Origin: a virus
DNA length: 64,000 nt
Direction: 5' to 3' (one strand)
Virus record (IMG/VR): IMGVR_UViG_3300021512_000003
Location: 1 to 64,000 of that record
In this document: positions 4,532 to 57,371 of the stretch, piece by piece
Layout of the letters: every line of letters starts with the position of its first letter
Numbering within the stretch: the first letter of the stretch is position 1
Position numbers and translations under genes: made by a program
The notes under the pieces: generated by a model
The model's database searches: none
What the model was told of the DNA's origin: nothing
What the model saw: only the letters and a program-made list of their open reading frames with translations

Positions 4532-4825
4532 TTACGCGACACCAAAAGACGGTAGCGCCTTTCTTAGATTGTTCGTGATTGTCGTAATGCTCTGGACACC
4601 TTGATATTTGCCGTTGCAATATACGCAGTAGTTGTCAATCCTGTCGCCCTCCGAGCATTCAAAAATGGCCGTCTCTCCTGTACCGATGCGCTCAACTGTT
4701 ATTCTCAGAGATGTGTCAACTTTCCCAGATTCTAGTGCAGCCGTTTCCATTCTCAGCATCGCTTTTTTGATGTTGGCACGTTGAGACCAGATCTTCTTCC
4801 TTTTTGCTGTTACCCTATAAGCCAT
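4532..4825 (-). CDS. Hypothetical protein
   Basis: 97 aa; AGGAG RBS supplied by the array leader element. Confidence 0.65.
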   Translation of the reverse strand: MAYRVTAKRKKIWSQRANIKKAMLRMETAALESGKVDTSLRITVERIGTGETAIFECSEGDRIDNYCVYCNGKYQGVQSITTITNNLRKALPSFGVA

Positions 4826-4873
4826 TGATTTTACTCCTACGACCTTGCGTAGTCTGTATAGTCCAGTGTTATA
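4818..4873 (+). other. Array leader / candidate attI-like site, copy 1, with IHF consensus
   Basis: 49-bp element identical to 57323-57371; IHF match AATCAATGGCTTA on - strand (4818-4830); ends in G|TTATA at 4868. Confidence 0.65.
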
Positions 4874-4909
4874 TTCTTAAGTCTTGTAAGTATTTGAGGT
4901 ATTCATCTA

Positions 4910-5236
4910 ATGATAAAAACAGACGACTCTATGAACACCTACAAGGAAAATTTATCAAAGGCTTTTGATACTAATTTACCTGAAGCAGATAAAACAGAAC
5001 TCTTAACCTACTTTCTAAATTTTAAGTCTCAAACTATCAACCATGTCAACGGCTGTCCCCCTAAAGCACAAGAAGCTGTAAATCTTCTTCAAACTTCACT
5101 AAATAAAGCCAATAAGAGCAGCGATAAACAAAGTCACTGGTATCAAAAACCAATAGGTATTATCTTCCTTAGTGTTGTTGGTATCACTTTGGCTTGGCTC
5201 TTGAGACATCTGCTAACCCCTTACATACAAATATAA
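4910..5236 (+). CDS. Cassette protein with C-terminal TM helix, canonical orientation
   Basis: Stop TAA lies within R'' (ATATAAC); WYQKPIGIIFLSVVGITLAWLL. Confidence 0.75.
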   Translation: MIKTDDSMNTYKENLSKAFDTNLPEADKTELLTYFLNFKSQTINHVNGCPPKAQEAVNLLQTSLNKANKSSDKQSHWYQKPIGIIFLSVVGITLAWLLRHLLTPYIQI

Positions 5237-5290
5237 CAAGTGCATCAACTCAGACGGCGCTATGCGCCGCAGGTTATGCAGGCGTTAGGT
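5231..5290 (+). other. attC-like recombination site
   Basis: ATATAACaagtgcatcaactcagacggcgctatgcgccgcaggttatgcaggcGTTAGGT. Confidence 0.9.
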
Positions 5291-5317
5291 GCCTCAATAC
5301 TAGAGTAAGGAAACACT

Positions 5318-5755
5318 GTGGACGCTTTTGCACTAGATATACTTAGAGAATTAAAAAACATAAGCACACCCTACGTTAATATAAATAACGTAACCTCTAA
5401 CTACGACATCCGTAGTAAGTATTTTATATCCTCTTATTTGCGACTAGAGTCTGAAGATTTAATTGCATCTGCAAATACACCTGATTGCGGTTTAGAGGTA
5501 GGGGCAGATGGAATACCTTCATGGTCTGTCGTTGATGTATATGTCACCGAGAAAGGTGACTTACTTCTCCATCCTCCAAAAACACCAATAAGTAAGGTGG
5601 TATTAAAAATTACCGAACACCCTGTTGTGGCAGCACTCATTGTTGCGGGTATTTTGGGCTTAGTTGCTTCTGTACCCACTTTTCTTGGTAGCGACCAGCA
5701 GTCAGGCCAACAACAAAAACTATCCCAACCCAAAACCAATGTATCTCAACCATAA
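5318..5755 (+). CDS. Cassette protein with C-terminal TM helix, canonical orientation
   Basis: AAGGA RBS and GTG start; HPVVAALIVAGILGLVA. Confidence 0.75.
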   Translation: MDAFALDILRELKNISTPYVNINNVTSNYDIRSKYFISSYLRLESEDLIASANTPDCGLEVGADGIPSWSVVDVYVTEKGDLLLHPPKTPISKVVLKITEHPVVAALIVAGILGLVASVPTFLGSDQQSGQQQKLSQPKTNVSQP

Positions 5756-5775
5756 ATCCTCCTGTCTGAACTTGC

Positions 5776-5835
5776 ACCTAACAATTGCATTAACTCAGAC
5801 GGCGCAGAGCGCCGCTGGTTATGCAGGCGTTATAT
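5776..5835 (+). other. attC-like recombination site
   Basis: ACCTAACaattgcattaactcagacggcgcagagcgccgctggttatgcaggcGTTATAT. Confidence 0.9.
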
Positions 5836-5837
5836 TG

Positions 5838-6038
5838 CTACGCGAGATCTTTACTTTTTACGTTTCCACAAATTTCGCACTGCAGATGATATTCAATATA
5901 TTCGTTACCGTCTGAAGATTGTATAGTTACCTTGTTAATTATTATCCACTTGTGCTCATGATCTGAAAAATTCCCAACAACTATCCTATATAGCCAACCA
6001 ATCATGGTATGCACTCCGTAGTTACTGCAATCTAACAA
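5838..6038 (-). CDS. Small cassette protein (HxW...CxxCG); true start probably ATG at about 6005
   Basis: GGAG before MIGWLY; fills cassette 5830-6080. Confidence 0.6.
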   Translation of the reverse strand: MLDCSNYGVHTMIGWLYRIVVGNFSDHEHKWIIINKVTIQSSDGNEYIEYHLQCEICGNVKSKDLA

Positions 6039-6086
6039 TTAATTCCAGCGGACGCGCTGGGCGCGCAGCTGAATCCGGTGTTATAA
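6030..6086 (+). other. attC-like recombination site
   Basis: ATCTAACaattaattccagcggacgcgctgggcgcgcagctgaatccggtGTTATAA. Confidence 0.9.
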
Positions 6087-6128
6087 ATAATAACCAAACC
6101 AACCAATGCACCAATTAAGGAGTTAAAA

Positions 6129-6317
6129 ATGGAAGGCGTTCAATCTCAGATAGGATATTATCCTAAGTGTCCTCATTGTCTTGAGGCTAATGGGTTCAAT
6201 ACTACACTAGACCCTCATACAGTTGGTGCTAGTGGAATGTACGAATTAGTTAGTTGTAAGTCATGCCAGACACTGATTCACATTTCTTGTCCCCCAAATC
6301 AGATCGTTTCAAACTAA
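6129..6317 (+). CDS. Small Zn-ribbon-like protein
   Basis: AAGGAG RBS; PKCPHC...SCKSC. Confidence 0.65.
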   Translation: MEGVQSQIGYYPKCPHCLEANGFNTTLDPHTVGASGMYELVSCKSCQTLIHISCPPNQIVSN

Positions 6318-6486
6318 AGTAGTCTGTAGGCACTTCTTGTATTTCATACAATGTATGAGAAGTGCCTTTCTTGTTTCTCTGCGCATAATCTACAGCACTC
6401 GGATAACACTTAAAGATAGCTTTAGGGTATAACTTTAAGTGCTCTACATCTGGGTAAACTAAAGTAATTGTAGCCATTTTATACAT
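6250..6486 (-). CDS. Small hypothetical protein, convergent partner of 6129-6317
   Basis: RBS present; local similarity to 1023-1268. Confidence 0.6.
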   Translation of the reverse strand: MYKMATITLVYPDVEHLKLYPKAIFKCYPSAVDYAQRNKKGTSHTLYEIQEVPTDYFSLKRSDLGDKKCESVSGMTYN

Positions 6487-6538
6487 CCTTCTAATTTAAA
6501 ATTATTATAAACAGTAACCAAGAACCTAGGAGGTTCTC

Positions 6539-6763
6539 ATGTCCTCAGTAAATCTAGTCAGTAACCACTAGGATAAAGGCTTCTGCCTAACAGAAGGTTG
6601 TAAGAGTGGCGCACTGACTATATACAACTCAAACGGTCTGCGGCTCCACTTTAAATGCCCCGTCTGTAAAATCGACAAGGAACTTAGTCCCACTGAGAGT
6701 AAAGAGCAAATCGAGATGATTGCTTATGAACTCGCTGCCAGTCTTACCACAACAAGTGAGTAA
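6539..6763 (+). pseudogene. Zn-ribbon-like ORF interrupted by in-frame TAG at codon 11
   Basis: Hairpin RBS 6521-6537; MSSVNLVSNH*DKGFCLTEGC...KCPVC...; frame stays open for 63 codons after the TAG at 6569-6571. Confidence 0.55.
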
Positions 6764-6829
6764 ACTGCTGTTTAGGAACTGCTCAAGCACCTGGGCAGTT
6801 TTCTCCTGTGCCGTATCTTCTATACACAT
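6629..6829 (-). CDS. Small hypothetical protein, convergent partner
   Basis: AGGGA RBS; 66 aa. Confidence 0.55.
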   Translation of the reverse strand: MCIEDTAQEKTAQVLEQFLNSSLLTCCGKTGSEFISNHLDLLFTLSGTKFLVDFTDGAFKVEPQTV

Positions 6830-6891
6830 AAAACTATTCCCTTATAATATACGATTAACCTTAATAACTAAGAACCGAGGAGGTTCTAAAT

Positions 6892-7068
6892 ATGTCACCT
6901 AACCAACTATTTGCAGAAGGTATTAGCAAACTATCTTCCATCCAGACAGCAGCAGAAACTACTGAGTACGAGAAGAATCTAGCAGAAGGGTTAATTCGTA
7001 CTCTTTCATCTTTGCACTCTGAAATCCTTTCTTTGAAAGAGCAAGTTCAAACTCTGCAAGACAAATAA
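6892..7068 (+). CDS. Small helical/coiled-coil protein, 58 aa (not in ORF track)
   Basis: Hairpin RBS 6871-6887; MSPNQLFAEG...LKEQVQTLQDK. Confidence 0.6.
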   Translation: MSPNQLFAEGISKLSSIQTAAETTEYEKNLAEGLIRTLSSLHSEILSLKEQVQTLQDK

Positions 7069-7153
7069 TTTGTCCATAAAGCCGAGTTTTTAGGTCAGAG
7101 CTTAGATGTATGTCTATAATTTGGAGTTTTTCAAAAAGTTCGTTTATTAGCAT
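6959..7153 (-). CDS. Small hypothetical protein, convergent partner
   Basis: GGAG RBS; 64 aa. Confidence 0.55.
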   Translation of the reverse strand: MLINELFEKLQIIDIHLSSDLKTRLYGQIICLAEFELALSKKGFQSAKMKEYELTLLLDSSRTQ

Positions 7154-7217
7154 GTACTTCTCTCCGTTTACATTGAAATACTAACTTAGAAAACCAAGAA
7201 CCTAGGAGGTTCTAAAC

Positions 7218-7484
7218 ATGGCTACTGAAATCTTGTTCAAGAAAATACAAGACACATTCCACTACGAGATCGCTAGTAGTGCTTCTGCATTTTCTTGTAA
7301 AGAAGTGAACCTAGTTGATTCAAAGTGGGATCAACTAGGGAGTGCATGGCACGAAGGGTTAAACGATCATGTCAGAGATGGTTTAGCCAACTACCAAAAA
7401 ATATTTGAAGAGGTAAACCAAATACACCCTATACCAGAAACACTTAAATACTTTTACGCTTACAGGGACGCAGCCCTTGCATGA
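7218..7484 (+). CDS. Small hypothetical protein
   Basis: Hairpin RBS 7197-7213; 88 aa. Confidence 0.65.
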   Translation: MATEILFKKIQDTFHYEIASSASAFSCKEVNLVDSKWDQLGSAWHEGLNDHVRDGLANYQKIFEEVNQIHPIPETLKYFYAYRDAALA

Positions 7485-7707
7485 TGTCTTGGAATGTGTC
7501 CTTACCAATCAAAGGTATTGTCTCGTTAAGAGATGCCTTCAGTCTAATGAAAATTTCAGGGGCTGTTAGGTGTTCATACTCTAAAGCTCTCTGAATAATT
7601 GCAGGGGTGGCTAGAGGGCTGGTTCCAGCGGCCCTCTCTTGTCTCTGTTGATCAGGGACTATGTAACCTGTGTAGGGGTCGTACCAGTACATCTTTTCTT
7701 CACTCAT
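7444..7707 (-). CDS. Small hypothetical protein, convergent partner
   Basis: GGAG RBS; 87 aa. Confidence 0.6.
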   Translation of the reverse strand: MSEEKMYWYDPYTGYIVPDQQRQERAAGTSPLATPAIIQRALEYEHLTAPEIFIRLKASLNETIPLIGKDTFQDIMQGLRPCKRKSI

Positions 7708-7730
7708 AAAACTATCTCCATTAAAATTAT

Positions 7731-7790
7731 TTCTAACAAGAAGCTTAATTGTGACGCAGACAAGCTGCGCACATTAGCCTTACGTTATGT
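7731..7790 (+). other. attC-like recombination site
   Basis: One mismatch to 1291-1347 up to the GTTA. Confidence 0.85.
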
Positions 7791-7961
7791 GTCGGTATAT
7801 TCGCTATCGTTTTCAAACTTCACTATAGCCAAATATAAATATTCTGGTATTTTCTGCCAGTGCGTCCTGTCGTATGAAGGCGTGCCCAAATAGTAGGTTC
7901 CGTCTTCCTCTTTCAATTCCAAATTGTCGTAATAGTTACTTAGCTTGCTTAACTCAGTCAT
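7785..7961 (-). CDS. Small cassette protein, 58 aa (not in ORF track)
   Basis: MTELSKLSNYYDNLEL...; its stop is the TTA of the R' box. Confidence 0.55.
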   Translation of the reverse strand: MTELSKLSNYYDNLELKEEDGTYYLGTPSYDRTHWQKIPEYLYLAIVKFENDSEYTDT

Positions 7962-7993
7962 AATTTAGCCCTTCTTTATAGTTAAAAACAACG

Positions 7994-8188
7994 TTAGGTG
8001 CCTTGCTCTTTAATTGTTTTTAGTAGTTCTTGGGCAAGTTTAACCACGCCACTATCTTCGTGATGGTGTACTTTTCTACCGTCATCAACAGAGTAAACTG
8101 TGCATCCATTACCAAGTTTTTTCCCCGTGTTTACGGCGCTTCTAGCCATAATCGGTTGTCCATTTATTAAGATTGCTACGGTCAACAT
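7994..8188 (-). CDS. Small cassette protein
   Basis: GGAGGAGG RBS; stop lies within GTTAGG. Confidence 0.7.
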   Translation of the reverse strand: MLTVAILINGQPIMARSAVNTGKKLGNGCTVYSVDDGRKVHHHEDSGVVKLAQELLKTIKEQGT

Positions 8189-8206
8189 TTTTTTGCCTCC
8201 TCCGGC

Positions 8207-8267
8207 ATATAATAATCAATTTAATTCGGATTCGCTCTACGAAGCTTAAATTGCTTTTTGGTTGTCT
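8207..8267 (+). other. Degenerate terminal attC-like site
   Basis: ATATAATaatcaatttaattcggatt...gcttaaattg resembles attC 60074; TAAC changed to TAAT. Confidence 0.5.
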
Positions 8268-9254
8268 AAAATCAATACCAGTATTATAGCAAGAGAGTTT
8301 ACACATAGCAAGCTGTTTAGTGCTCTACTTTCCTTTCACCCACAGTATCAATTAAGATATAAGGTGTCCTATAGGCTCAGTGTAGGCTATAGTGCATCCC
8401 TTATCATTACTAAGTAATACATAATAAGAAGTGTATCATCAACTAACCAATAATACACAACATAAAGAAGTATGTAACACTTATTAGAATCACTTAATGT
8501 AATTCTGTATTCCCTATTGATAGTAGAGTAGTTAACTTATCGTGCTAGTTTTAGAGTTAGTCTCCGTCCTCCCCAAGGGGAACAGGCAAAGAGGATTACC
8601 CTCTTATAAGAACATGTCTTATCCAGACACATTCACACCATAGCTCACGTTTAGAAGAGCATCCATGATAGGTTCAGGACACTCTTACACCATCTCTTCT
8701 TGGCTGTCAGGGAACAGAGAGCATAACCCTCTGTCGGCACCCCCGCCTCACTCCCTCTTATCTTCTACTATAAGCTGGAGAAGTGCTTAACTACTTACTA
8801 GGCTACTTCGTATCTTAACCCACCCAAAGGGTTATCATTTTATAGAAGGATACACTTCTTACAAAGAAGAGAGTATTTCTACCCACTCAGTAATAGTTTA
8901 CACTATGTTTTTAAAAACACTAGCACCCTAAAGCCCAACTATGTTCAGTAAGTTACAAAATAATCAAGAAAGAAGCCTTTTAGAGAGTGCTAGTACCTGC
9001 TATACTCGTAGTATACTTAAACAGCTACTATGAAAACTCACTTAACTTAAAGGCAAGCTACAGTCGTTATGGACGGGTGGAGGGCATGATTGAAAAGTTA
9101 TATATATGCTATAAATGTTTAATGGTGCAAAGTAAAAACGAAATGCGCAAACCTGGGAAAGTGAAGGGTTTGAGTCTTGAGAGTAGTAGAAATATTAAAA
9201 TGTGTAAATCTTGTAGTTGTAAAGTATTTTTAACGTGAAGATGTAGGAGGTTTT

Positions 9255-9548
9255 ATGAGCTATGATATGGATATAGGAAGTGAAGATTTTAACTACACAT
9301 ATAATGTTTCTGAAATGTGGTACGACTGCTACCCAGATAAAGGAATTAGAGAGCATTACGGGTTATCTGGAGAGGAAGCAGTGCCAGTGCTTAGAGAGTT
9401 GAGGGAGCATATGGAAGATAACGCTGGAAAATTAAGAGAAATGGAGCCTGATAATGGATGGGGAAGTTTTGATGGTGCTCTTAAGTTTGTCAACAAGCTC
9501 ATAGCAGCATCCCTGTGGAACCCGAACGCGTTATGGCAAGGGGACTAA
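9255..9548 (+). CDS. Conserved phage hypothetical protein
   Basis: AGGAGG RBS; NYTYNVSEM...PDNGWGS motif common in phage proteins. Confidence 0.75.
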   Translation: MSYDMDIGSEDFNYTYNVSEMWYDCYPDKGIREHYGLSGEEAVPVLRELREHMEDNAGKLREMEPDNGWGSFDGALKFVNKLIAASLWNPNALWQGD

Positions 9549-9551
9549 TCA

Positions 9552-9613
9552 CACTAATTATTGTGCTAAACGGCAAGCGCCAGCGAAGTCAGGTTTTCAG
9601 TGCTATGTTATAT
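9552..9613 (-). other. Degenerate attC-like site in the opposite orientation
   Basis: Minus strand ATATAACatagcactgaaaacctgacttcgctggcgcttgccgtttagc; core nearly the same as attC 60982; R' GTT changed to ATT. Confidence 0.6.
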
Positions 9614-9782
9614 TTTAATTGTGAGGCTTAGTATGGTAGATGGAGAAGAACTGATTAGATTGATTTGCAAGAAATTAGCAGCGGAAGACATCCGGCTTTA
9701 TGACTCCGAGATCGTTAACGCGATAAGCGGGTTGAATGAGGTAGATTTAAAAAAAAAAAACTTCTAACTCCGGAGAAAGTAA

Positions 9783-10088
9783 ATGATAAGTTTAGACCAA
9801 ATAGCTCGAAGACTTCCCACAGAGTTAGTGCCTAAAAGGCTGACTAGCGCCTCTTTGCTTGCAGCTATTAGTCAGCTAAAGGTTGAGCGCAATAACGCTG
9901 TAGTTGAGGCTGAAGACTTTAGCAGAGGTGCTGCTGCTGAAGCATATCAAGTGATAGGGGCAATAGCGTACGATCAACAGATATTCGACAACCCAAACAT
10001 ACAAAGAGCACTAGATTACTTTAGTGATACTGCGGATGGAGAGAGGGGCAGTAGAGTGAAAGACGACATCCTGCCTTTTTCTTTATGA
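9783..10088 (+). CDS. Hypothetical protein
   Basis: GGAG RBS; 101 aa. Confidence 0.65.
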   Translation: MISLDQIARRLPTELVPKRLTSASLLAAISQLKVERNNAVVEAEDFSRGAAAEAYQVIGAIAYDQQIFDNPNIQRALDYFSDTADGERGSRVKDDILPFSL

Positions 10089-10125
10089 CTCCACTAATAA
10101 CAATAAAAATAAACAAGAGGACAAT

Positions 10126-10314
10126 ATGAGATGTAAGGCATGTAATAAACAGATAGAAGAGGCAACAGAGACAATAGACTCTTTAACAGAGGGCTTATGT
10201 TACCGTTGTTTTTTCAGAGGGTGCGAGGTTTACACATACGAAGGGGACCACCCCTTTACACTTAAAGCCGCTCTAACAGGCGTAACACCTCCATGTAGGG
10301 TTGAGTATGAGTGA
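10126..10314 (+). CDS. Small Zn-finger protein
   Basis: MRCKAC...LCYRC; GAGG RBS. Confidence 0.65.
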   Translation: MRCKACNKQIEEATETIDSLTEGLCYRCFFRGCEVYTYEGDHPFTLKAALTGVTPPCRVEYE

Positions 10315-10858
10315 ACAGAGTACGGAGTGTGGCTGGCCTAATCTGGCGTCAGCTAGGGCAATATTCGAGAGTTCAGACTCACTTCTTCTTTATGCTGCAA
10401 GGAGTGACCACAAAGCTCTTAAGAGTCTCTTTCTCTCTGCGGGTGTTGGGTTGACTTGGTGCTACTCAAGAATAAGAGAGAAAAATATAGATCTAAAACC
10501 TATTAAGGAACTCTTTATAAAAGAGGCATTCTTCGACACTGGCTGGTTTGATGATGAGTATTCTCTTGAAGACGGTGAAGATTTCAAACACTACTCAAAG
10601 AATCTATATATCACAAACTATGGGACACCACTCCTAAAATGTAAAATAACGTATAGAGGAGTAGAGTTTACTAAGTATAGGGCAGCAGTAAAAAACATCA
10701 TCAATAGGTACTACAGAATAAAGACAGACAGACTCTATGTTCACAAGATAGTGGCCTCTGTGTGGGTGGAGAACAAAAAGCCAAACACCTATAAAAAGGT
10801 TAGCCATAAGAACAAAAACACACTAGATAACCACTATTTTAACCTTTATTGGACATAA
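10301..10858 (+). CDS. HNH-family endonuclease-like protein
   Basis: C-terminal VHKIVA...VSHKNKNTLDNHYFNL (HNH_3-like). Confidence 0.6.
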   Translation: MSMSEQSTECGWPNLASARAIFESSDSLLLYAARSDHKALKSLFLSAGVGLTWCYSRIREKNIDLKPIKELFIKEAFFDTGWFDDEYSLEDGEDFKHYSKNLYITNYGTPLLKCKITYRGVEFTKYRAAVKNIINRYYRIKTDRLYVHKIVASVWVENKKPNTYKKVSHKNKNTLDNHYFNLYWT

Positions 10859-11210
10859 TTGCAGATACGGTTCTAGTAAAATTCAAAACATGCTGTAAAC
10901 TATTACTGAGTAGGGTGGTAAAACACATAGAGTGGTTTGTAAGGATGACATCTCCTAAATCAGCACAAAGAGCTACAGGCTTATATTGAAGAGGTATCCA
11001 GCCTTTGTTTGTGTTCCTACTCAACCCATCTACAGACATTCATGGAAGACCTTCCCAAGGTTGTCTCCAGTATCTCCCAACTAACAGGAGAGTTTGTAGG
11101 TGTTTCGCAGGGATACAAGAATAACAATATTCCCTGCTTTTTATAACAGACAGATCAAAGGAACCTCTCTCTGAGATGTGTTCCTTTCTTGGTTTGTGTT
11201 GGAGGTTTTT

Positions 11211-11525
11211 ATGTCGTGGGAGAAAGGTAAATCTGGTAATCCAAGAGGAAGACCAAAGGGTGCTAAAGCAGCCATACCGTCTAACAAAGCGATCAAAGAC
11301 GCATTTAAGAAGAACTCAAACGAAGCTCTAGTTAAACTTCTCTCAATACTCCGTACAAGTGAGGATGAGGGTAATCAGCTTAAGGCTGCAGTAAAGATTC
11401 TTGATGTGACGTACAATATTGTTGTTGTAGAAGAGAGAGAGGCTGCTTTAAAGAAAAACGGTGTTATGGATGAAGAGCCTTCAGAGCAAAAGCCTCCAGT
11501 AATCTCTCTTAGGGCAGTAACTTAG
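11211..11525 (+). CDS. terS: Terminase small subunit (probable)
   Basis: GKSGNPRGRPKG motif; GGAGG RBS before ATG 11211; directly upstream of terL. Confidence 0.7.
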   Translation: MSWEKGKSGNPRGRPKGAKAAIPSNKAIKDAFKKNSNEALVKLLSILRTSEDEGNQLKAAVKILDVTYNIVVVEEREAALKKNGVMDEEPSEQKPPVISLRAVT

Positions 11526-11533
11526 GAGGTTAG

Positions 11534-47398: not shown

Positions 47399-47447
47399 CT
47401 CGTCTCTTGTTAAGGAGGGAGAGGGAAAACCCCCTCCCTAGACACAA

Positions 47448-48296: not shown

Positions 48297-48356
48297 AACC
48301 TTGCTCTCTCTTATGTTAGGTTTCTAAATATTTCGCTTGAATATCTCTGAGACACT

Positions 48357-48791: not shown

Positions 48792-48849
48792 ATATATTCT
48801 CTTTTTGTTAAAATTTGTTTGTGTGGAGATAAACTTCTATCGTAATGCC

Positions 48850-48905
48850 TAACCTTTTGATTTCATCAGTATGACTTTGTGTAGTCTGTATAGTCCAGTG
48901 TTATA
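48850..48905 (+). other. Array leader / candidate attI-like site, copy 2, with IHF consensus
   Basis: 41/49 identical to the other copies, last 25 nt identical; IHF match AATCAAAAGGTTA on - strand (48850-48862); G|TT at 48900. Confidence 0.65.
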
Positions 48906-48937
48906 AATAATAACCAAGAACCTAGGAGGTTCTAAAT

Positions 48938-49183
48938 ACGAAACCAATAAACCACCTAAACTATAAAACGATTGAGAAAGACCTCAACCAAGCACTACAA
49001 TCCCACATCTCTTACGAAGATTGGATGGAGTTTATTGTAAGACTTGTAGGCGGCTCGGAAGACATCTACCAGATCAACTACATACTTCCAACCAGTGCTG
49101 GTATTACTACAGAAGTTCCGCTTGCAGAAGCAACTTCTTTATACGTGGGTATAATTCGTCTTGTTGCTCCTCCGCAAGTGTGA
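48938..49183 (+). pseudogene. 81-codon ORF whose start position reads ACG instead of ATG
   Basis: Hairpin RBS 48917-48933 then AAATACG, where the sister copy at 6888 has AAATATG; frame open to TGA 49183. Confidence 0.55.
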
Positions 49184-49319
49184 GTACATCCCTGAAAACT
49201 TGCTTATCCTCACTACCGTCTGCAAGGAGGATTTTGGGGACGAGGAGGTAATCTACCTCTCCATTGATATGCCTCTTTATGTTGTCCAGAACTCCTTGAA
49301 GTAAAAGTGTATCTATCAT
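49107..49319 (-). CDS. Small hypothetical protein, convergent partner
   Basis: GAGG RBS; 70 aa. Confidence 0.65.
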   Translation of the reverse strand: MIDTLLLQGVLDNIKRHINGEVDYLLVPKILLADGSEDKQVFRDVLTLAEEQQDELYPRIKKLLLQAELL

Positions 49320-49345
49320 ATCTCTGTCCTCTTATCTAAAATTAT

Positions 49346-49403
49346 TTCTAACAAGTTAATGTTGTCGGAATTGCTACGCAATCCGCAAATTAAGACGTTA
49401 TGT
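49346..49403 (+). other. attC-like recombination site
   Basis: TTCTAACaagttaatgttgtcggaattgctacgcaatccgcaaattaagacGTTATGT. Confidence 0.85.
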
Positions 49404-49404
49404 G

Positions 49405-49779
49405 TCAGTACTGCTCTCTCATTTGCTGTCGAAGTTGCACAATTTCATTCTTCAGCTTCTCATTTTCCTCCACCAAATCTTGATTCAAGTCTTTAACTAC
49501 CTCATCCTTATGGTTGGAGTAAATAGCTTGGCGCAACTCCTTGTAATCATACGTGTGGTTAGCCCTCCCCCCACGGTATCCTTTAAATCCATCCATCAAG
49601 GCGTTTCGGTAATTTGTCCAGTGATCAGAGTCAACGTAATAACTGACATCAGTATATAAATCGCCCAATACCTCATTCATCAAAGCTACAAGTTTGGGTT
49701 TAAAGCTGTCCATTATTTTCTGTGCTTCTTCTTTCCCTTGCTCTGTAAGTTCTGGGTATAAAGGATAATCTTCACTCAT
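49405..49779 (-). CDS. Cassette-borne phage hypothetical protein
   Basis: GGGAG RBS; 124 aa; fills cassette. Confidence 0.75.
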   Translation of the reverse strand: MSEDYPLYPELTEQGKEEAQKIMDSFKPKLVALMNEVLGDLYTDVSYYVDSDHWTNYRNALMDGFKGYRGGRANHTYDYKELRQAIYSNHKDEVVKDLNQDLVEENEKLKNEIVQLRQQMREQY

Positions 49780-49802
49780 TTTAATCTCTCCCGTTTAATC
49801 GC

Positions 49803-49866
49803 ACATAACAAAGCACTGAAAAATCGGACTGGCAGAAGAGCCAGCCACTTACAATAGGCGCTATAC
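49803..49866 (+). other. Degenerate terminal attC-like site
   Basis: ACATAACaaagcactg...ctggc-agaaga-gccag...ggcGCTATAC; R' GTT changed to GCT. Confidence 0.65.
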
Positions 49867-50657
49867 AGCCGCCTGTTACTAACACTTATGTATTTGACGG
49901 TTCAACTTCTTCGCTAAACTGTAACCCGTATGTAGCACATTCTGTGCAAATTTCAGTTTGAATGTACTCACCTTCTCGGTCGTTAGTTGTGTTCAGCCCA
50001 TATCTGCTTACCCTAAAAACTGAGTCGCAGTTGATGCACTTTGCTATATAAGCTCTTTTGTGCTTATTACTATGCCTAATTAACTCCACTATCAAAACCT
50101 CTACTGGTAATATAACAACGGGCTGTTTTGTCTCTCACTTCATACCCCTCACATAACAAAGCGGCTCTTAGCATCTTGATAGTGTCTTTAATCCTCCTGA
50201 TAGAGGGGAGCTTCCTGTATTGTGTAAATTTGTGAACCTCTCCAACAGACTCGTATATCCAACCATCACATCTAATTTTAAAACAATCACCAACCTTTAT
50301 ACATTGTACCACAAGGTCTGGCTTTTGTGTTATGTGTTTTCTTGCTTTCTTCTTCAGAGTCACCACCGTCAAGAAACATGTTATCGTAGTGTTGATGAGG
50401 TAAAACAACCACAGAATCACAGGCATTACAGACACCAACCAGTCTTACAAGTCCAGAGCCATCACTAAAAGGTGTATTTCTTAATTGAAATGTTACATTT
50501 TGAAATGACTTGCAAGGACTACAAGCTGCTCTTTTAGTGTCTCCAACCTTCAATGTTTGCTGCATATCTTTGTTGTTAAAACTCAAACCCACCCCTCTAC
50601 TTGTACCATTGTTGTTTGACGTATCTTCATAAAACAAGAGTATAGCACACTTAAAAA

Positions 50658-53168
50658 TTAATGACAATCCTTCCAGCTTCCTCCAATAACGTATCCTGCT
50701 GTTAGTGGTACGTTTAGATTAAAATGCTTCCCAGCCTCATTTACAGATTGTGCTGCAAGCTCTCCTGTTGGAGAATAAGCAATATAGTAATCATCTTTCT
50801 TCCCTTTTTTTATGTCACTCCACATAATACCACCTTTCTCCTCTATTGTCTTGAAATTAATTGCTTCTTTTTCTGTAGGAAATGTCCTTATGTCTACTAA
50901 TTCTTTACTTACACTATTCTGCCCTTCATCGTGATAAGCAATAGACTGCATGGAACACTTCTTCTTTGTTACATCCTCTTTAAATGGATTACCAGAGTAG
51001 CCTAGTGCTTTATATTTCCTGTCTAGCCACACCATAGCCCACTTCATGCAGATAACACCTGCTGACTGGAACTTCACATTCAAAAGTGAGTGTTGACTCC
51101 TCGTAGGTAGTTGTCTACCATCTATTGCTGTAAGGAATTTCTTATTATTTGTACTCCACTCTGATTCAACTTGTTGTTTGTATATCGCAAGAGGTAGTGC
51201 ATCTTCCCAGAAACTCTCGACCTCTTTCTTCCCTTTTGCCAAGCTCCAGTTCATTTGCTTTGCAGCCCCTGCTGCTGAAGAGCCGTAAGTTAGTGAGTAT
51301 TTTAATGTCTTACTGTCATCTCTACTAATACCTTTACTCTCTGCTCTTCTCGAATGAAGGTCCTGTGGCTTCTTAGCTATGAGGGATGTACAATATGGGT
51401 GGCCTTCTGTATCACAGTTCCAAACGTAGTGCCCCTCTATCCTAGCCTCTAGACCATCAGCATCGTACCCCTCTAAGAAAGCGTACCTTGGGTCTGCCAT
51501 GAAGAGTGCTCTCATGTGTTCTCCGTACAGACTACTGCTTCGAGGTACGTTAGCTACCCCCTTATGCTGGAATCTTGAGGTAGCACAACCACAGGGGTCT
51601 GCTGGGGTGGGTATGCGTCCGTCTATGGCTAACCTGCCATGTGAGAGCCACCCTGTAATCCTCTTCTTCTTTTCACTGGCAGGGGAGTAGATAGAGTTCT
51701 TCCTGTGTCTGTATGTAAGCCACTCTACGATGTGCTTTACATACCACACTTTCCTACCTAGCCTTACGAGGTTATCACACAACTCTTTGTCTGCATTCTT
51801 AGTGAAGACAGGGAGGCCAACAACCTTTAATGGTTTGTTGAGTTTATGCTTCAGAAGCTTCTCTCTAAGGCCACTAGGTCTCACTCTCAAATTAGCACAC
51901 CTCTCTTTCTCGAAAGGTGTACCTATTGTGGCCTCAATATACCTATCTACAGCAGCTTCAAACTTCTCTTGTGTCAGCTTCTTCTTCTTACTATCCAGTG
52001 TTAGGTCTTTGTCTTTCCAGTTCAGAGGGTTCCACCCCAGTGTTATTAGGTATGCCTTAATGTCTTCTTGGTGAGACAGTAGCATTGGCTCTGTAGTAAC
52101 AAGAGACTCTCCCTCTGGTAAGGGGAGATCCCACATCTTATTAAAGATCTCAACCTTTCTTGGAAGGATAAGGGTTTTCTTTACTCTCTTGCCTACCTCT
52201 CTTTCTTCGTGAGCTACAACCCTACCTCCGTGCTTTTCTAAGAATTTAGCTAGATTAGCAGACATAGTACCGTCCCCAACAAATTGTCCTTTTGGAGGTA
52301 TGAACTTTTTAGCTTCTGTCTTCCCTATCTTTTTTGGTGGTAGGAGGTGTTCTACATCTTGCTCTATCTTATCCATTTTCTGTGTAAGATCTTTTACGCA
52401 CCACTCAGCAAGCTTAATATTGAACTTAAAGCCGAAGTGTTCTTGTCTTGTTATAACCTCTGCTACAGCCTTCTCTAACTTGTAAGCCTCACCCCAAGAC
52501 CACGTACCCCACTCCTTCTGGAGCATCTTGTACACTGCTAGGTTAGCTATACAGTCTTGGATGTTGTAGTAGAGCATGTCTGCACCAAACCACGTAAACC
52601 TGTCCTCGTCCCACTCTTTTCCATGTCTGAACTCAACCTTAAAAGAGCCTGCTGCTTGAGACATCTTTGCAAGGGAATGTCCACACCACCTATCTGGGTT
52701 TAACACTTTAGACATAACAAGTGTGTCGTGAATGTATACGTCTTTACCACCTACCGTGTCAGACTCTTCTTTATTGAAGCCAACAGTGTATGGTTGGTCA
52801 TAAAGTAGGTCCATTAAGAGAAGGTCGTAGTTAATAATGTTATGACCTATAAGCATCTTTGCCTCGTCTTTGATGAAGGCAGGCACCTCGCTTAGTGGGT
52901 AGTGTGTGTATTCATACTGTGTGTAGTGCTCTAGTGGCACAGTGAGTCCATTCGGGTATGTTGTGGTGTGAGATCTACCGTCAAACAGTATCTTGTCACC
53001 ATCACAAAATGCAAACAACTCAGAAGTGGTTGTGTCAAGAAATACAAAGCAATGTGCCTTAAAAGAGGGAAGAAGCTTATATGGCATTTTGCTGTAGTCA
53101 ATAGACTCATAATTGAGTAGGTTATTAGCTTCTGCATCAAATATTAACTTCCTTCCTGACATATTCAT
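50658..53168 (-). CDS. polA: Family A DNA polymerase with 3'-5' exonuclease (T7-like)
   Basis: DAE exo I, GHNIINYD, DADGLEAR motif A, RDDSKTLKYSLTYG motif B (Tyr at the 762 position), YHDE motif C. Confidence 0.93.
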   Translation of the reverse strand: MNMSGRKLIFDAEANNLLNYESIDYSKMPYKLLPSFKAHCFVFLDTTTSELFAFCDGDKILFDGRSHTTTYPNGLTVPLEHYTQYEYTHYPLSEVPAFIKDEAKMLIGHNIINYDLLLMDLLYDQPYTVGFNKEESDTVGGKDVYIHDTLVMSKVLNPDRWCGHSLAKMSQAAGSFKVEFRHGKEWDEDRFTWFGADMLYYNIQDCIANLAVYKMLQKEWGTWSWGEAYKLEKAVAEVITRQEHFGFKFNIKLAEWCVKDLTQKMDKIEQDVEHLLPPKKIGKTEAKKFIPPKGQFVGDGTMSANLAKFLEKHGGRVVAHEEREVGKRVKKTLILPRKVEIFNKMWDLPLPEGESLVTTEPMLLSHQEDIKAYLITLGWNPLNWKDKDLTLDSKKKKLTQEKFEAAVDRYIEATIGTPFEKERCANLRVRPSGLREKLLKHKLNKPLKVVGLPVFTKNADKELCDNLVRLGRKVWYVKHIVEWLTYRHRKNSIYSPASEKKKRITGWLSHGRLAIDGRIPTPADPCGCATSRFQHKGVANVPRSSSLYGEHMRALFMADPRYAFLEGYDADGLEARIEGHYVWNCDTEGHPYCTSLIAKKPQDLHSRRAESKGISRDDSKTLKYSLTYGSSAAGAAKQMNWSLAKGKKEVESFWEDALPLAIYKQQVESEWSTNNKKFLTAIDGRQLPTRSQHSLLNVKFQSAGVICMKWAMVWLDRKYKALGYSGNPFKEDVTKKKCSMQSIAYHDEGQNSVSKELVDIRTFPTEKEAINFKTIEEKGGIMWSDIKKGKKDDYYIAYSPTGELAAQSVNEAGKHFNLNVPLTAGYVIGGSWKDCH

Positions 53169-53218
53169 AACCTATAGTTAAAGTAACAAGCTCCTGCACT
53201 GTTTTGCAACTTGTGCAT

Positions 53219-53560
53219 TTAGTCGTGCTTTGCCTCTTCCAAGTTAGCCAAGGCTGCTGCCAACTCATCTTCAAAGTAATGCTTACCTCCAATCAACACT
53301 GTACTTCGCAAGTCTTCTCCACACAACCACCCTATGTCAATGTCTGCACCAATGTCTTCACTAAAGACAACTCCACTGTTACTAGAAAGGATTTTTCCAG
53401 TAACACCTGTAAATAAAAAACATTTATCCGTATGACGGAAACGCTTACCACCCATAGACCACCTATACCCAAGGACAAATAAGCGCTCTTGTATAACCTT
53501 ACTCACTTCCTTGTCGTAACCAATGTTAAACTTCATATTTTTAAATTCAAACATATACAC
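53219..53560 (-). CDS. Conserved phage hypothetical protein
   Basis: FKNMKF...IQERLFVLGYRW motif. Confidence 0.7.
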   Translation of the reverse strand: MYMFEFKNMKFNIGYDKEVSKVIQERLFVLGYRWSMGGKRFRHTDKCFLFTGVTGKILSSNSGVVFSEDIGADIDIGWLCGEDLRSTVLIGGKHYFEDELAAALANLEEAKHD

Positions 53561-53861
53561 CTCTTATTTTATGTGATCTGTTGTACTGTGGGTACAAGCA
53601 TAGCATACAGTACTGTGCGACACAAGTACGTTCCTTTTTCCTTACCTTTGGTAACCCGTTGTGCCATCTCTTAACTCTCTTATTAACCTGATAGCTTTAT
53701 TTAACTTTAGGAAGACATCGGCAGCTACCTCTACATCGCACAACAAGTAGATAGATTGCTGCGTCTCCCTTAGCTCTGCAATAAAATCATCTATCTCATT
53801 TTGTTGTTTTGTCATCACACTGCCTCTTGTTAAGTGTTAGTTGGTTTCACTCTAACCGGTG

Positions 53862-54623
53862 TTAAGCATACTGACTAATTCCCTCTTCACACCACACATC
53901 ACTCGACCCATCAAGACTAGCATGAGCAACCTTGTCAATAAAACTGTACTCCTCCTCACCCTGAAACTCTGAGACAAACTTGTACTTTCTTATAGCCATA
54001 TACTTTGCTTCGTTCTTCATCATTGTAAAAAGTAGACCTTCCGATGTGTCTTCATTCTCAATGAAGCCTAAAGGTACTCTCTGAATAAACTTTGTGGCAG
54101 CAAGCCAGTACGCTTCACTTACCTCTACCTCAGACAGATTAAACCTTCTAGTAACCATGTGCGGCATAGACAGTGCCCATCTTCCAATTTCTTTTTCTAA
54201 AGGGGTTTTATTTAATAGACAATGCTGGTAACAGGCTTTCCCTAGAACACTCTTGAACTTACTGTAGTGCTGTAATGTCCTGTGATCAGCTACAGTGTTA
54301 AAATCATACAGCCCCGCCAAATTCTCAGCCCGACAGTTCAGCGTATCCTTATCTCTAAAAACTATCTTACTGCAATCTGAGTCAGGTAGGAAGTGTTTTG
54401 CAACAAGAGTGTGTACGAACACATTAAACACTCTCCCTTGTGTTGTTTTGCGGCTTAAAAACACCCTAAGCCTTGGGCTAGAGTTCTTGCGCCTTTTGCT
54501 TATATAAGGTTTCAACACCTTCTCTCCAAACTTCTTTGTCCAACTCATAACTCTACCAAGACTGCTGATATAGGCGTTATCTATTCCGTTAATAGCTTTC
54601 CACTCTTCACTACTCATAGTCAC
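53862..54623 (-). CDS. Free-standing NUMOD4-HNH homing endonuclease (HNH degenerate)
   Basis: EEWKAI...YISSLGRV; VHTLVAKHF...FRDKDTLNCRAENL. Confidence 0.7.
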   Translation of the reverse strand: MTMSSEEWKAINGIDNAYISSLGRVMSWTKKFGEKVLKPYISKRRKNSSPRLRVFLSRKTTQGRVFNVFVHTLVAKHFLPDSDCSKIVFRDKDTLNCRAENLAGLYDFNTVADHRTLQHYSKFKSVLGKACYQHCLLNKTPLEKEIGRWALSMPHMVTRRFNLSEVEVSEAYWLAATKFIQRVPLGFIENEDTSEGLLFTMMKNEAKYMAIRKYKFVSEFQGEEEYSFIDKVAHASLDGSSDVWCEEGISQYA

Positions 54624-54632
54624 CTCTTACAA

Positions 54633-57143
54633 TTAAAACTCTGGTCTACACCCTTCACCATCACTCTCTTGTGCAGATGTATGCTTGTTCCTTGCTTCCC
54701 ACTCTTGTATTGTATCACAATGTACGTCCTCAAGGAAGCCCTCTGGTGGTTCTATAAAGTCTCCTGTTGAGTTATCGTAGAACAAAGGAACCTTCCCAGT
54801 ACGCCCATACTTCCTGTCGTCAAGGACTACCAAAGAACGTGTGTTCTTTTCTTTAGTGGTTTGGTCTGGGTCTTTATTCCCCTCTAAGCCAATCATGTAG
54901 TGACAACACAAATATGTTCAAGGAGGTTCGCTACTACCTCCCCCGCACCACCTCTTAGGTGCTGCTGCTCTAGCTTTCACTAGAAGTTCAGACTATATCA
55001 CCATCTCCTTATAAGAGATGCCTTCCATTTCCACCACCAATAGCTTGTGGTGTACGAGCTTACGCTCTAGTCGTTGAGGTTTACTAACTTCTTTGTAGTA
55101 CCCCTAGCCTTGTACCAAGCATCACCTGAGCAATACAGTGAGTTGGTTACAGCATGTTGTACGTTTTCTTGTTGGGATACTACCTCAAGATTACTTAAAG
55201 AGTTATTTACTGTGTTACCATCTATATGGTTTACAACTTCATTTTTATTAAGTTGTCTACCTATATGTACTGAAGCAATTAACCTATGTAGCATATAAAG
55301 CTTATCTTTTAGCCTTACACGCATATAGGGGTTTTTACTTCTTCCCCAGTGCTTGTAAGGTTTTAACCTCTTAATTTGAGGTTTTCTTGCTATACTATAT
55401 ATGTTACCTTTTAAGTCTACAAAGTATTTATCCATTTCTGGTACTTGCAGTAAATCTTGTTTTGTTAGTCTTACCTGCTGATTGCCCATTGTAACATCCT
55501 TTTATTGTTCATCATTGTATCACACATAACTACCAAGCTCTACAACTATAAAAAGGCTTTAGGGGTTTCCAGCAATTAAAAAGGTTTGCAAAGAGAGTCA
55601 CCTCTCTAGGGCGCTATTGTTAACGCATCATAGACCTACTACCAGTGAACTGAGAACTATAAACCTTCCCTCCAAACTCATGTGGCTGGCCTTTATCTGG
55701 TGCTTTAAGATGACAGAAGCAATAATAAGTAAAACCTAAATCTATACTCATCTTACTAATCTCATCAGCAAACCTATCAAGCTCCGTGTTTGCCTCGGAG
55801 GGAGTCATCCCTGTTGTAAGCCTGGTTATCGGGTCAATAATGATGTCTTCGCAATGCTCAATAAGAACTGCATGACGTATAGCCCCTTTCAGCTCATCCC
55901 AACTACACCTACCATAGTTATTATACAGGCAAAGACGTGGGCCTGTCTTGTCCGAGGCTGCTATTAAGTCTTCTTGAGTGAAGTAGTTTGACCTGTCAAC
56001 AGGAGGGGCTTTCTCTTGGAACTCACCACAATCATCAACATAGAGGACAACCTCCTCTCCTTTCTCATTAAAGAAGATAGCCTTCTCTGGATTAGTGAAG
56101 TCCTTCTTAGACTCCTTACCAGCTACACGGTGAATCGTCTCCGTTGTCGGTTCCTCGAATTTAAACACAGCAACCTTCTGAGGCTTACCTAGTGAGTTCT
56201 TATCTCGCGCCAATATGTGACTAATTAGTTTATCTGCTAGACAACTCTTGCCCTGCTTCACACCTGCCCCAAAGTAATACCCCTCCCCCAACCTACGTCC
56301 TAATGTAAGTCTTGTTAAAGACCTCCAAGGCCACGTCTTACCTACCACAGGTAACTTATGTGTCTCCTCTCTAATCTCCTCGTAGAGAGTAAAACCTTCT
56401 GGTGTGTACTGGGAAGGCTTCATCAGCATCCAGTAAAGAGCTGTACTCCCCTCTTTCAAGTAGACATCACAAGGGTCACTATCTTCTGGTAGTTTTGCCA
56501 CAAGCATATCTGGGAATAGTCCATATACGTCAGCAGTGGCCTCATTGCCTCTCTTTATCTTCTTTAGTCTCTCTTGTGGTGTTGCACTATCGTTATCAAA
56601 AGCAAACACCTTCTCACTAAATTTATTCAGGTAACGTGTATTTGCTTTCTGTCCTAAGTTCTGAACAGCGTTAGCTGTCCCACAACCAATACTTAGTGTG
56701 GTGGGATTACCTTTACCTTTGTAACCTTCCTTTAGGCATTGCCACATAAGCATACAATCTATCTCACCCTCACTAACAAATACTTTCTTCCCCCCAGTCT
56801 TATTACCAGATACCAGCCCAAACAAATCGCACTTAACACCGTGATACCCTATAGAGGTGAAGTGGAAGTTACCTTGCTTTGGCTTAGTCAAGTCTCGCTT
56901 CTTATAACCTACAATCCTATCTTCTATTGTGTAGGGGAAGTAGTGAGCTATAGGTGTACGGCCATCACTACTGCTAAGCTCAGTTCTAACACCAAAATGC
57001 TCTGCTGTCTTTTGTGTGATCTTCCTTTCTTCTATAGGAAGGATAGGAAAGGTGAGTACGTCTGCTAACGTCTGCTCCTTCACTCTCCCATAGCTTACTC
57101 CTGCTGTAGCTTTATTCATCTTCTCTCCTGTTTGGTATGTCAT
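54633..57143 (-). CDS. DNA primase-helicase (T7 gp4-like), spliced (exons 57143-55623 and 54908-54633)
   Basis: TOPRIM EGEID and FDND; Walker A GAGVKQGKS; IIIDP; splicing gives GSRSMMR-CCHYMIGLEGNKD. Confidence 0.9.
54909..55622 (-). mobile_element. Group I intron in primase-helicase
   Basis: P1 GCGU|U pairs with AGCGC; AATTGCTGGAAAC (P), GGCAATCAGCAG (Q), CAACGACTA (R), GATATAGTCT (S); terminal G. Confidence 0.92.
55067..55489 (-). CDS. Intron-encoded HNH homing endonuclease
   Basis: LHRLIA...VNHIDGNTVNNSLSNLE...ENVQHA. Confidence 0.9.
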   Translation of the reverse strand: MGNQQVRLTKQDLLQVPEMDKYFVDLKGNIYSIARKPQIKRLKPYKHWGRSKNPYMRVRLKDKLYMLHRLIASVHIGRQLNKNEVVNHIDGNTVNNSLSNLEVVSQQENVQHAVTNSLYCSGDAWYKARGTTKKLVNLND

Positions 57144-57315
57144 AGTCTCACCTATCCATTAAAGCCTTTTAATTATCTGGTGTGTGTATACATAGTTAAT
57201 ACCTTATCGTTAATACCTCATCTTTTTATAATGTACATACTAAGACGTTCTCTAAAACCGTACAGTATTCTTGTTCCTCTGTTAGCCTTACCACAGGCTT
57301 ACTACTACTGGTTTG

Positions 57316-57371
57316 TAAGTGCTTGATTTTACTCCTACGACCTTGCGTAGTCTGTATAGTCCAGTGTTATA
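57316..57371 (+). other. Array leader / candidate attI-like site, copy 3, with IHF consensus
   Basis: 57323-57371 identical to 4825-4873; IHF match AATCAAGCACTTA on - strand (57316-57328); G|TT at 57366. Confidence 0.65.

Follow-up and report, generated by a model that had tools for sequence, protein, structure and literature searches.

The first 64,000 nucleotides of the 81,888-bp IMG/VR virus record IMGVR_UViG_3300021512_000003 (this stretch is referred to as the window; the record has a 127-bp terminal repeat) contain a conserved leader of about 50 bp that stands, in several copies, at the head of arrays of integron-type gene cassettes. Most of what is known about integron cassettes comes from bacteria, where they form a system of gene sharing that depends on an integrase encoded beside the attachment site attI. 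The phage leader is probably a double-stranded, attI-like junction site, served by a recombinase that acts in trans or is of another kind, and we assign this reading a probability of about 0.6. Sequence comparisons reveal the anatomy of the site, the exact position of the junction, the pairing of the cassette ends, the polarity of the arrays, the recurrence of the site across phages and the turnover of the first cassette. The site and a small gene, which is called MAY here after the first residues of its product, together head arrays in dozens of uncultivated phages that are unrelated to one another, most of them without a recombinase.

A 20-nt core of the leader, GTAGTCTGTATAGTCCAGTG, occurs three times in the window, at 4849, 48881 and 57347, always on the plus strand. 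None would be expected by chance, since 0 of 100 shuffled sequences contained a match even when up to three mismatches were allowed. The first-pass annotation had described a dispersed 49-bp leader in front of the arrays, and this description was confirmed: the copies at 4825-4873 and 57323-57371 are identical (49/49) and the copy at 48857-48905 agrees with both in 41 of 49 positions. A search of the full record added a fourth exact core on the plus strand, at position 75314, beyond the window and likewise heading an array, while a control pattern was not found in the record. The fourth leader agrees with the second in 48 of 49 positions, the sole mismatch being the last base, which lies past the junction. 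Only the first copy is joined to an intact MAY gene. The other three have lost the ATG and retain a remnant of the first MAY codons (TGTAAG in the third copy); in these MAY-less copies the core is 100% identical and the flanks are unrelated. All four leaders are located 0-180 nt upstream of a gene on the minus strand, which in the second copy is a gene at 48357-48791 that starts 59 nt to the left of the leader. The annotation had also stated that the leader is not a palindrome of the attC type, and this held: 12 of 12 leaders fold no better than shuffled sequences (z -1.16 to +1.09), in contrast to the attC-like elements, of which 4 of 4 reach z -2.5 to -4.3. A decayed attC site, which the length of the leader (54 nt) and a TAAC in copy 2 might suggest, was rejected as its origin because none of the 12 leaders folds and the left half consists of coding and ribosome-site sequence.

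The position of the junction emerges from an alignment of 18 leaders, which comprises the four copies of the phage, three metagenome contigs, ten IMG/VR loci and one MAY-less copy (locus L047). In all 18, conservation ends at GTT(A), with the break between G and TT, and the information content falls to approximately zero right after GTTA. The elements TGTTA, CA, ATA and C.TT are invariant. In a second clade of 34 loci the same core ends in GTT followed by A, G or C. According to the annotation, the far end of the first cassette complements the bases that follow the junction G, and in the four arrays of the phage the agreement amounts to 7/9, 8/9, 8/9 and 5/9. The comparison of the nine nucleotides after GTT with the nine nucleotides before the AAC of the nearest attC-like site detected by a covariance model yielded a mean match of 5.71/9 over the true pairs, as against 3.19 +/- 1.42 in mismatched pairs, and none of 20,000 permutations gave a mean as high. 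The test leaves out two loci, L055, in which the script found no core, and L063, in which it found no AAC. A match of at least 7/9 was observed in 12 of 28 true pairs and in 5 of 756 mismatched pairs. The variable fourth base covaries, such that the R'' region of the cassette has CAAC where the junction is GTTG and GAAC where it is GTTC. Such pairing is the signature of a circle that was closed through attC and then opened between G and TT against the leader.

Behind each of the four leaders stands an array whose attC-like hairpins share a single orientation. The repeats are imperfect hairpins of 50-73 nt with the form TAAC-AAg ... GTTA; they are closed by TAAC/GTTA, followed by 2-3 unpaired bases, and single bases bulge from the 5' arm. 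In 14 aligned repeats 79.5% of the cells are paired, compared with 62.8 +/- 2.0 in shuffled alignments, a value that 0 of 500 shuffles reached and that a sliding of the 3' partner reduced to at most 39.6%; 14 of 22 pairs display compensatory changes on both sides. The structure was supplied from folds of single sequences, RNAalifold having returned no consensus on MAFFT alignments. The repeats thus possess the architecture of integron attC sites, namely an R''(..AAC)/R'(GTT..) hairpin with unpaired spacers, bulges and a variable tip, and they presumably resemble textbook attC sites. A covariance model of our own (R1), built from the 14 repeats and run unfiltered on the whole record, detected 21 sites at E <= 0.13, all 21 on the plus strand and all 21 within the four arrays; 14 of the 21 are the training sequences and one is a duplicate that arises from the terminal repeat. 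The arrays add up to about 15.6 kb of the 81.9 kb, or about 19% of the genome.

The polarity of the arrays extends to other phages. In 336 kb of MAY-bearing loci R1 produced 39 matches at E <= 0.1, all 39 on the leader side and in the orientation of the leader. A second model (R2), trained on 49 matches, produced 87 at E <= 0.05, of which 87 lie on the leader side of MAY and 86 have the orientation of the leader. The R2 matches fall in 29 of 46 MAY loci and in loci L026 and L047; several of the MAY loci without a match have less than 400 nt of flank, and several pairs of loci are near-duplicates and hence not independent. Neither model matched anything in 380,220 bases of control loci, which consisted of helicase relatives and one bacterial contig. 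The 20 loci with relatives of the helicase that adjoins the third leader (43-64% identity) contain neither the leader nor attC-like sites.

MAY occupies the position that intI holds in an integron and reads away from the array. An alignment search of IMG/VR identified 12 MAY loci at 51-79% identity (clade 1), and in 12 of 12 a homologous leader lies directly upstream. A profile search of 1.84 billion representatives added the 34 loci of clade 2, for a total of 46 uncultivated viral loci with a gene of about 100 amino acids. Most clade-2 loci contain CCTTGCAcGG, about 10 nt, ATAt, about 5 nt and TGTT, at a distance of 0-20 nt from the MAY start codon. The exact core was also found in three metagenome contigs, the two of which that are long enough both carry MAY at the same place, with 32% identity; in IMG/VR the exact core was present only in the record under study. 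The genomes spanned by the core have attC sites with a G+C content from about 0.3 to 0.7. The annotation had suggested that the element be sought in related phages and in bacterial integrons. The related phages have core and MAY in the 46 loci, arrays on the leader side and differing first cassettes. An exact 19-mer of the core matched once in 185,579 species genomes, in a search that finds identical sites and not diverged attI. The match, in a metagenome-assembled genome of Crocinitomix, was judged to be due to chance as it had no upstream consensus and no attC site nearby. In GenBank phages blastn retrieved chance-level matches to the leader only (E >= 0.5), and megablast with window positions 1-12000 and 47000-64000 retrieved no close DNA relatives of the phage.

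The extent of the portable unit is indicated by a complete 39.8-kb IMG/VR phage with terminal repeats (L030/L047), which has two cores in opposite orientation, one with MAY and both at the head of attC arrays. In the MAY-less copy, L047, only the right ~28 nt are kept, and the ATG of an unrelated open reading frame (ORF) abuts the core. This reduced core is still followed by at least four attC-like sites, which identifies the right-hand core as the portable unit. A single core was found in each of four further complete genomes of clade 2. The closest relative of the MAY protein (L032 6001-6216, 79% identity) is cut by a stop codon to 71 amino acids, with leader and array intact.

Comparison between phages revealed blastn similarity confined to MAY and the leader (about 345 bp), which stops at the junction base in pair after pair. 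Loci L037 and L039 are 82.7% identical over 1,854 nt that end at 6331 in both, and their right flanks are unrelated; together with L040 they have one leader and three unrelated first cassettes. The same GTT junction with differing first cassettes, even on identical leaders, indicates repeated recombination at one site. Contigs from other vent metagenomes that were mapped on 46000-64000 add alternative arrangements in related populations. In run X3 a contig joins 61242-61287 to 57366 and onward, with about 114 unplaced letters in between, and in run X2 position 57366 is preceded by an attC end that resembles the site at 6030-6086. Both breaks coincide with the junction G at 57366, from which it follows that the leader-proximal cassette of array C is situated behind other attC sites elsewhere. 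The joints 49396>48900, 48904>59224 and 48905>49349 could not be told apart from cross-mapping of paralogous cassettes and were not used. Run X1, a hydrothermal-vent metagenome and probably the source of the record, contains minor phage variants, for example a type-A leader copy after a slightly different left flank of copy 1, which suggests co-existing strains.

A conserved block of about 50 bp could also serve as a linker through which co-infecting phages swap a variable region by homologous recombination, with no site-specific enzyme involved. Promoter/stem-loop linkers of T4-type phages have been proposed to play such a role in homologous exchange. Similarity that is limited to MAY and the leader with unrelated DNA on either side, and leader copies that are identical within one genome, would suit this explanation. 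However, the breakpoints of homologous exchange should scatter, whereas the similarity stops at one base in every comparison. At this base lies the canonical crossover of integrons, and the bases beyond it pair with the R'' of the cassette itself. We regard the linker as very unlikely.

More probably, the leader is an attI-like site and would be the fixed double-stranded partner through which integron-type cassettes are joined to the phage genome, and hence the functional equivalent of attI. Its portable core is the right ~30 bp, with CyTTGc, about 10 nt, TATA(t/g)T, about 5 nt and TGTT. The crossover would take place between G and TT, and everything to the right, including the fourth base of GTTA, would be contributed by the incoming cassette. 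The left ~20 bp of the leader are mainly the ribosome-site region and the start codon of MAY. Recombination at the leader within the phage, the identity of the enzyme and any role of MAY are deduced from the sequence pattern. A tyrosine recombinase (PF00589) was not found in the whole 81.9-kb record by a search that scored in 14 of 14 control genomes, and none was found in 4 of 5 other near-complete MAY-bearing records. Given that the phage has no tyrosine recombinase, we infer that an integron integrase of the host works in trans and that MAY may assist or target it. Among ten larger ORFs tested downstream of MAY in nine loci, four are tyrosine recombinases (L031, L041, L066 and L073, at about 0.2-0.7 kb). 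These score best as generic Xer-type enzymes, with 40-52 bits against cut-offs of at least 220, so that none reaches any integrase model, and one carries an arm-binding domain of the lambda type; they are read as ordinary lysogeny integrases. The presence of integrases near MAY in some relatives raised the possibility that the leader is the attP site of the phage. This was discarded for two reasons: the arrays have phage core genes on their flanks and lie within a complete genome that is terminally redundant, and no integrase is present in 5 of 6 near-complete genomes, the record studied here among them.

MAY itself offers few clues. It belongs to no Pfam or PHROG family, and its relatives form 565 clusters in a large protein collection, all of about 100 amino acids, all annotated as hypothetical and none with a Pfam domain. 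An AlphaFold model of moderate quality (predicted local distance difference test score 71) had no Foldseek match in the PDB at E < 0.5, VIA-align gave a best Z of 5.1, which is under the noise level stated for that tool, and the ESM Atlas contained no usable match. MAY had no tblastn match in 50,697 GenBank phage records, from which it follows that the published phages with cassette arrays among those records do not have the combination of MAY and leader. Any function of MAY is speculation, suggested by where the gene lies and by how strictly it is linked to the core. One form of it, possible if unlikely, is that MAY and the ~30-bp core constitute a self-contained platform for cassette capture, in which MAY binds the core and recruits the host integrase or itself joins the cassette or licenses the joining. 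Were this so, lytic phages without an integrase could draw accessory genes from the cassette pool of bacteria, increase their number and rearrange them, and the platform would define a new class of integron with a non-integrase platform gene and cassettes that are read toward the entry site.

The annotation's interpretation of the leader as an attI-like entry site assisted by integration host factor (IHF) survives in part. The junction-site component is supported by the boundary, the pairing, the polarity and the turnover described above; the assistance by IHF is not. By analogy with the leaders of type I-E and I-F arrays of clustered regularly interspaced short palindromic repeats (CRISPR) and with lambda attP, where IHF acts, a host IHF site 50 bp from the crossover would bend the DNA and direct polarised integration. 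The consensus WATCAANNNNTTR is indeed present on the minus strand where the annotation had placed it, at 4818-4830, 48850-48862 and 57316-57328, each match starting 50 nt before the junction G, and it recurs in leader copy 4, so that an exact consensus stands at the same offset in 4 of 4 copies of the phage and in 14 of 18 aligned leaders. In copies 2-4, moreover, the changes are confined to the N4 positions, with WATCAA and TTR retained and the ATG lost. This pattern could equally reflect selection to remove a start codon that would be spurious after a strong ribosome site, and the three leaders of the window share the motif as copies of one repeat. With four matches in the window against 3.59 +/- 1.82 expected, a number equalled or exceeded in 46 of 100 shuffles, the consensus is not enriched. 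The motif coincides with the start of MAY in 11 of the 14 leaders that have it, namely in copy 1 and in 10 among 14 other loci and contigs; there it reads AATCA-ATG-(G/A)(C/G)T-TA and consists of the spacer, the ATG, the second codon and the initial two bases of codon 3, which encodes Tyr. It is missing in 4 of 18 leaders, in L031, L038 and L041, which have TTGTTTT, and in L047; of these, L031, L038 and the MAY-less L047 still have arrays, and L041, with 373 nt of flank, has no model match. In clade 2 the place of the motif is taken by the beginning of the coding sequence: the start codon lies 0-20 nt from the core, which leaves no room for the motif at that offset. From these sequence patterns an involvement of IHF at the leader seems quite unlikely.

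The placement of all leaders just 5' of minus-strand genes is compatible with a promoter or operator for the genes read leftward, namely MAY, the ribonucleotide reductase operon, replication genes and a ClpP-like gene, with MAY perhaps as an autoregulator and the arrays filling gaps. One MAY gene with several cores per genome would be in keeping with a trans-acting binder, and TATAGT/TATATT is a conserved -10-like element. A consensus scan for sigma-70-type sites, with -35 and -10 elements 16-18 nt apart, found none that overlap the three leaders of the window on either strand; the TTGC.. and TATA.. elements are 6 nt apart in the alignments, not 16-18. There is no room for a transcript start and a ribosome site in L047 and several clade-2 loci, whose ATG is contiguous with the core, and a promoter does not explain the exact boundary between G and TT, the pairing of the cassette ends or the fixed polarity of the attC-like sites. 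As a full explanation it is very unlikely, although a non-canonical promoter or a MAY operator could coexist with a role in recombination.

More weight has to be given to a passive boundary that is conserved for the expression signals of MAY and of the core genes to its left, such as a ribosome site, a 5' UTR and perhaps an operator, and at whose edge GTT is a tolerated secondary site where cassettes insert. According to the account given in a preprint on attG sites, integron integrases insert cassettes at double-stranded GWT sites in genomes, hotspots exist among them and attI may derive from such hotspots (10.1101/2022.09.11.507474). The left part of the leader as translation start of MAY, the CAAGG that precedes the MAY ATG by 5-7 nt in many clade-2 loci, and the four copies of the phage upstream of minus-strand genes all fit this explanation. 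It is opposed by the use of the same GTT as junction in all leaders (the 18 aligned and the clade-2 set), with differing first cassettes, and by the persistence of an identical core amid unrelated flanks in the MAY-less copies, down to the 28 nt that survive in L047. A hotspot that recurs and is conserved over two clades is, in effect, an attI. We consider a merely passive boundary unlikely.

Several points weigh against an attI-like site as well. Recombination is seen through comparison only and not as a direct event; the vent contigs are assemblies of low depth that represent alternative orders and not events, and in the near-identical loci L034, L035 and L036 the sole difference was seen far from the leader. 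No intI is present adjacent to the site or anywhere in the phage, so that the defining neighbour of attI is missing. Sites of the attI type are integrase-specific, and it is odd that a single core should serve across the range of attC compositions noted above with many host integrases. The sole candidate for a pair of L and R boxes that inspection of the leader alignments by eye revealed is a weak inverted repeat, TATA(t/g) - 7 nt - TTAT; a second repeat of the GTTA type is not present. Since the core with its CAAGG is in part an expression signal, some of its conservation has another cause. Finally, most cassette ORFs point toward the site, the reverse of the classical integron. Nearly all those of arrays C and D (57367-61320 and record 75337-81888) are on the minus strand and point at the leader; they are antisense to the attC top strand, and several terminate in TAA, the complement of which is part of GTTA.

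As set out in the relevant sections of Cury et al. 2016 (PMC4889954), integrons are composed of intI, attI and attC sites, and a CALIN is a cluster of two or more attC sites that lacks a nearby integron integrase gene. The arrays of the phage are CALINs, having two or more attC sites and no intI; they are not complete integrons, no tyrosine recombinase being present. Like attI as portrayed in the parts of Cury et al. 2016 (PMC4889954) and Qi et al. 2023 (PMC9892861) that bear on it, the leader is a double-stranded, non-hairpin head of an array, with a crossover between G and TT that makes it chimeric with the first cassette, with downstream attC sites in one orientation and with a gene on the other side that is read away from the array. 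It differs from attI in a phage without intI anywhere, in a gene of about 100 amino acids without a fold match at the place of intI, in four copies per genome, in cassette genes that mostly point toward the site, in the want of a clear L box or of direct-repeat binding sites, and in a core whose sole exact match in the species genomes is a chance 19-mer. The leader behaves like attI in five respects that were tested but has no adjacent intI and is therefore not filed in the known attI class.

Clusters of attC sites in lytic phages have already been published, as small groups for which no entry site is known. The main text of Qi et al. 2023 (PMC9892861) describes 17 CALINs across 21 phages, each with two attC sites or more, and reports that attC sites of three virulent phages recombine with attI1 under IntI1; it further mentions methyltransferase cassettes, some cassettes in atypical orientation, and inverted GTTRRRY motifs and a terminator at some CALIN boundaries. 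The phage studied here is likewise of the lytic type and shares with those phages two or more attC sites without intI, methyltransferase cassettes and atypical orientation. It differs in its four arrays, at least 21 attC-like sites and the large part of the genome that they occupy; the passages of Qi et al. on these clusters mention neither a partner gene nor a boundary site that is conserved and not itself an attC. The attG sites of the preprint (10.1101/2022.09.11.507474) resemble the leader as double-stranded targets outside a classical integron that have G-W-T at the cleavage point and place a cassette beside unrelated host DNA; as presented there, they are scattered and share only GWT, whereas the leader consists of about 30 conserved bp at a fixed spot beside a gene in 46 loci, with turnover of the first cassette. 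With CRISPR leaders of types I-E and I-F and lambda attP the site shares a conserved leader beside a polarised array and, in this phage, a consensus IHF motif at a fixed distance; in most family members the motif is explained by the coding and translation start of MAY, and it is not kept across the family. Full-text literature searches, which did not cover the boundary table of Qi et al. (Table S2), turned up no description of a conserved platform made up of core and MAY. What is new is that dozens of uncultivated phages conserve the core, that a small gene in the position of intI is strictly paired with it, that one genome of the lytic type has four array heads and that cassette genes are read toward the conserved site.

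If the leader is a true entry site, phages would have a dedicated route into the bacterial cassette pool, to which methyltransferases and probably anti-defence genes belong, and sites of the attI type could arise and be disseminated with no integrase linked to them. How integrase-less arrays originate would then become testable with a 30-bp site and a protein of 100 amino acids.

The coordinates of the leaders, arrays and neighbouring genes are compiled in Table 1.

Table 1. Features of the leaders, the cassette arrays and their surroundings (window positions unless the record is named; the two are numbered alike)
Feature	Position	Strand	Remarks
MAY gene	4532-4825	-	97 aa; ATG at 4825-4823 and ribosome-site region inside the leader
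Leader copy 1 (type A)	4818-4871	+	TAAG to GTTA; junction G 4868; left end overlaps the MAY start codon
Leader copy 2 (type B)	48850-48903	+	junction G 48900; no MAY gene
Leader copy 3 (type A)	57316-57369	+	junction G 57366; helicase gene to the left
Leader copy 4	record 75283-75336	+	outside the window; heads array D
WATCAANNNNTTR match AATCAATGGCTTA	4818-4830	-	AATCA + ATG GCT TA of the MAY start
Array A, first cassette	4869-5287	+	ORF 4910-5236 (+); attC-like site 5234-5287
Array A, attC-like sites	5231-5290, 5776-5835, 6030-6086, 7731-7790	+	ranges of model hits
Array B, first cassette	48901-49403	+	attC-like site 49346-49403
Array B, weaker and longer element	~49805-49878	+	missed by the model
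Array C	57367-61043	+	attC-like sites 57598-57669 (E 0.13), 58382-58457 (E 0.76), 58889-58961 (E 0.049)
Array C, further attC-like sites	59212-59270, 59732-59803, 60074-60129, 60418-60474, 60982-61043	+	
Array C, N6/N4 DNA methyltransferase cassette ORF	57664-58356	-	
Array C, DUF3268 protein cassette ORF	58473-58892	-	
Array D, distal part	74-1350	+	attC-like sites 74-129, 829-888, 1291-1350; array crosses the 127-bp terminal repeat
Ribonucleotide reductase gene	1398-4517	-	with intein
Helicase gene	55620-57143	-	
Mu-type portal, tape measure protein, family A DNA polymerase, DNA methyltransferase genes			further genes of the window

The first cassette of array A starts with TTATATTC.., which pairs with its own R'' region. 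When 15 array ORFs were compared with Pfam, 7 of them also with PHROGs, three had a family: the methyltransferase, the DUF3268 protein and an ORF of array D at record 78082-78408 on the minus strand (L028 14082-14408). The last of these, which was not delimited as a cassette, encodes a stand-alone domain that resembles the N-terminal NAD+-binding domain of DNA ligases (Nlig-Ia, E 1.9e-27).

Near-identical attC sites are present in different arrays, namely 1277-1347 and 7717-7787, 59212-59270 and record 75577-75635, and 60074-60129 and record 76675-76730, which suggests that cassettes were copied or moved within the genome. The terminal repeat, at 1-127 and record 81762-81888, holds a complete attC-like site (74-129, and again in the last 54 bases of the record), so that array D runs across the ends of the record. 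The repeat may have arisen in assembly, as the overlap of a genome that is circular or permuted, instead of marking a physical end. The intein in the large subunit of the ribonucleotide reductase contains a LAGLIDADG homing-endonuclease domain and occupies residues ~349-679. A repeated 5' region of cassettes, AACCAAGAACCTAGGAGGTTCTAA, was found at 882-920, 6504-6542, 6854-6892, 7180-7218 and 48900-48938. It places an AGGAGG in the loop or the 3' arm of a small GAACC/GGTTC hairpin just before cassette ORFs on the plus strand, and this hairpin may be a translational control element of one cassette family.

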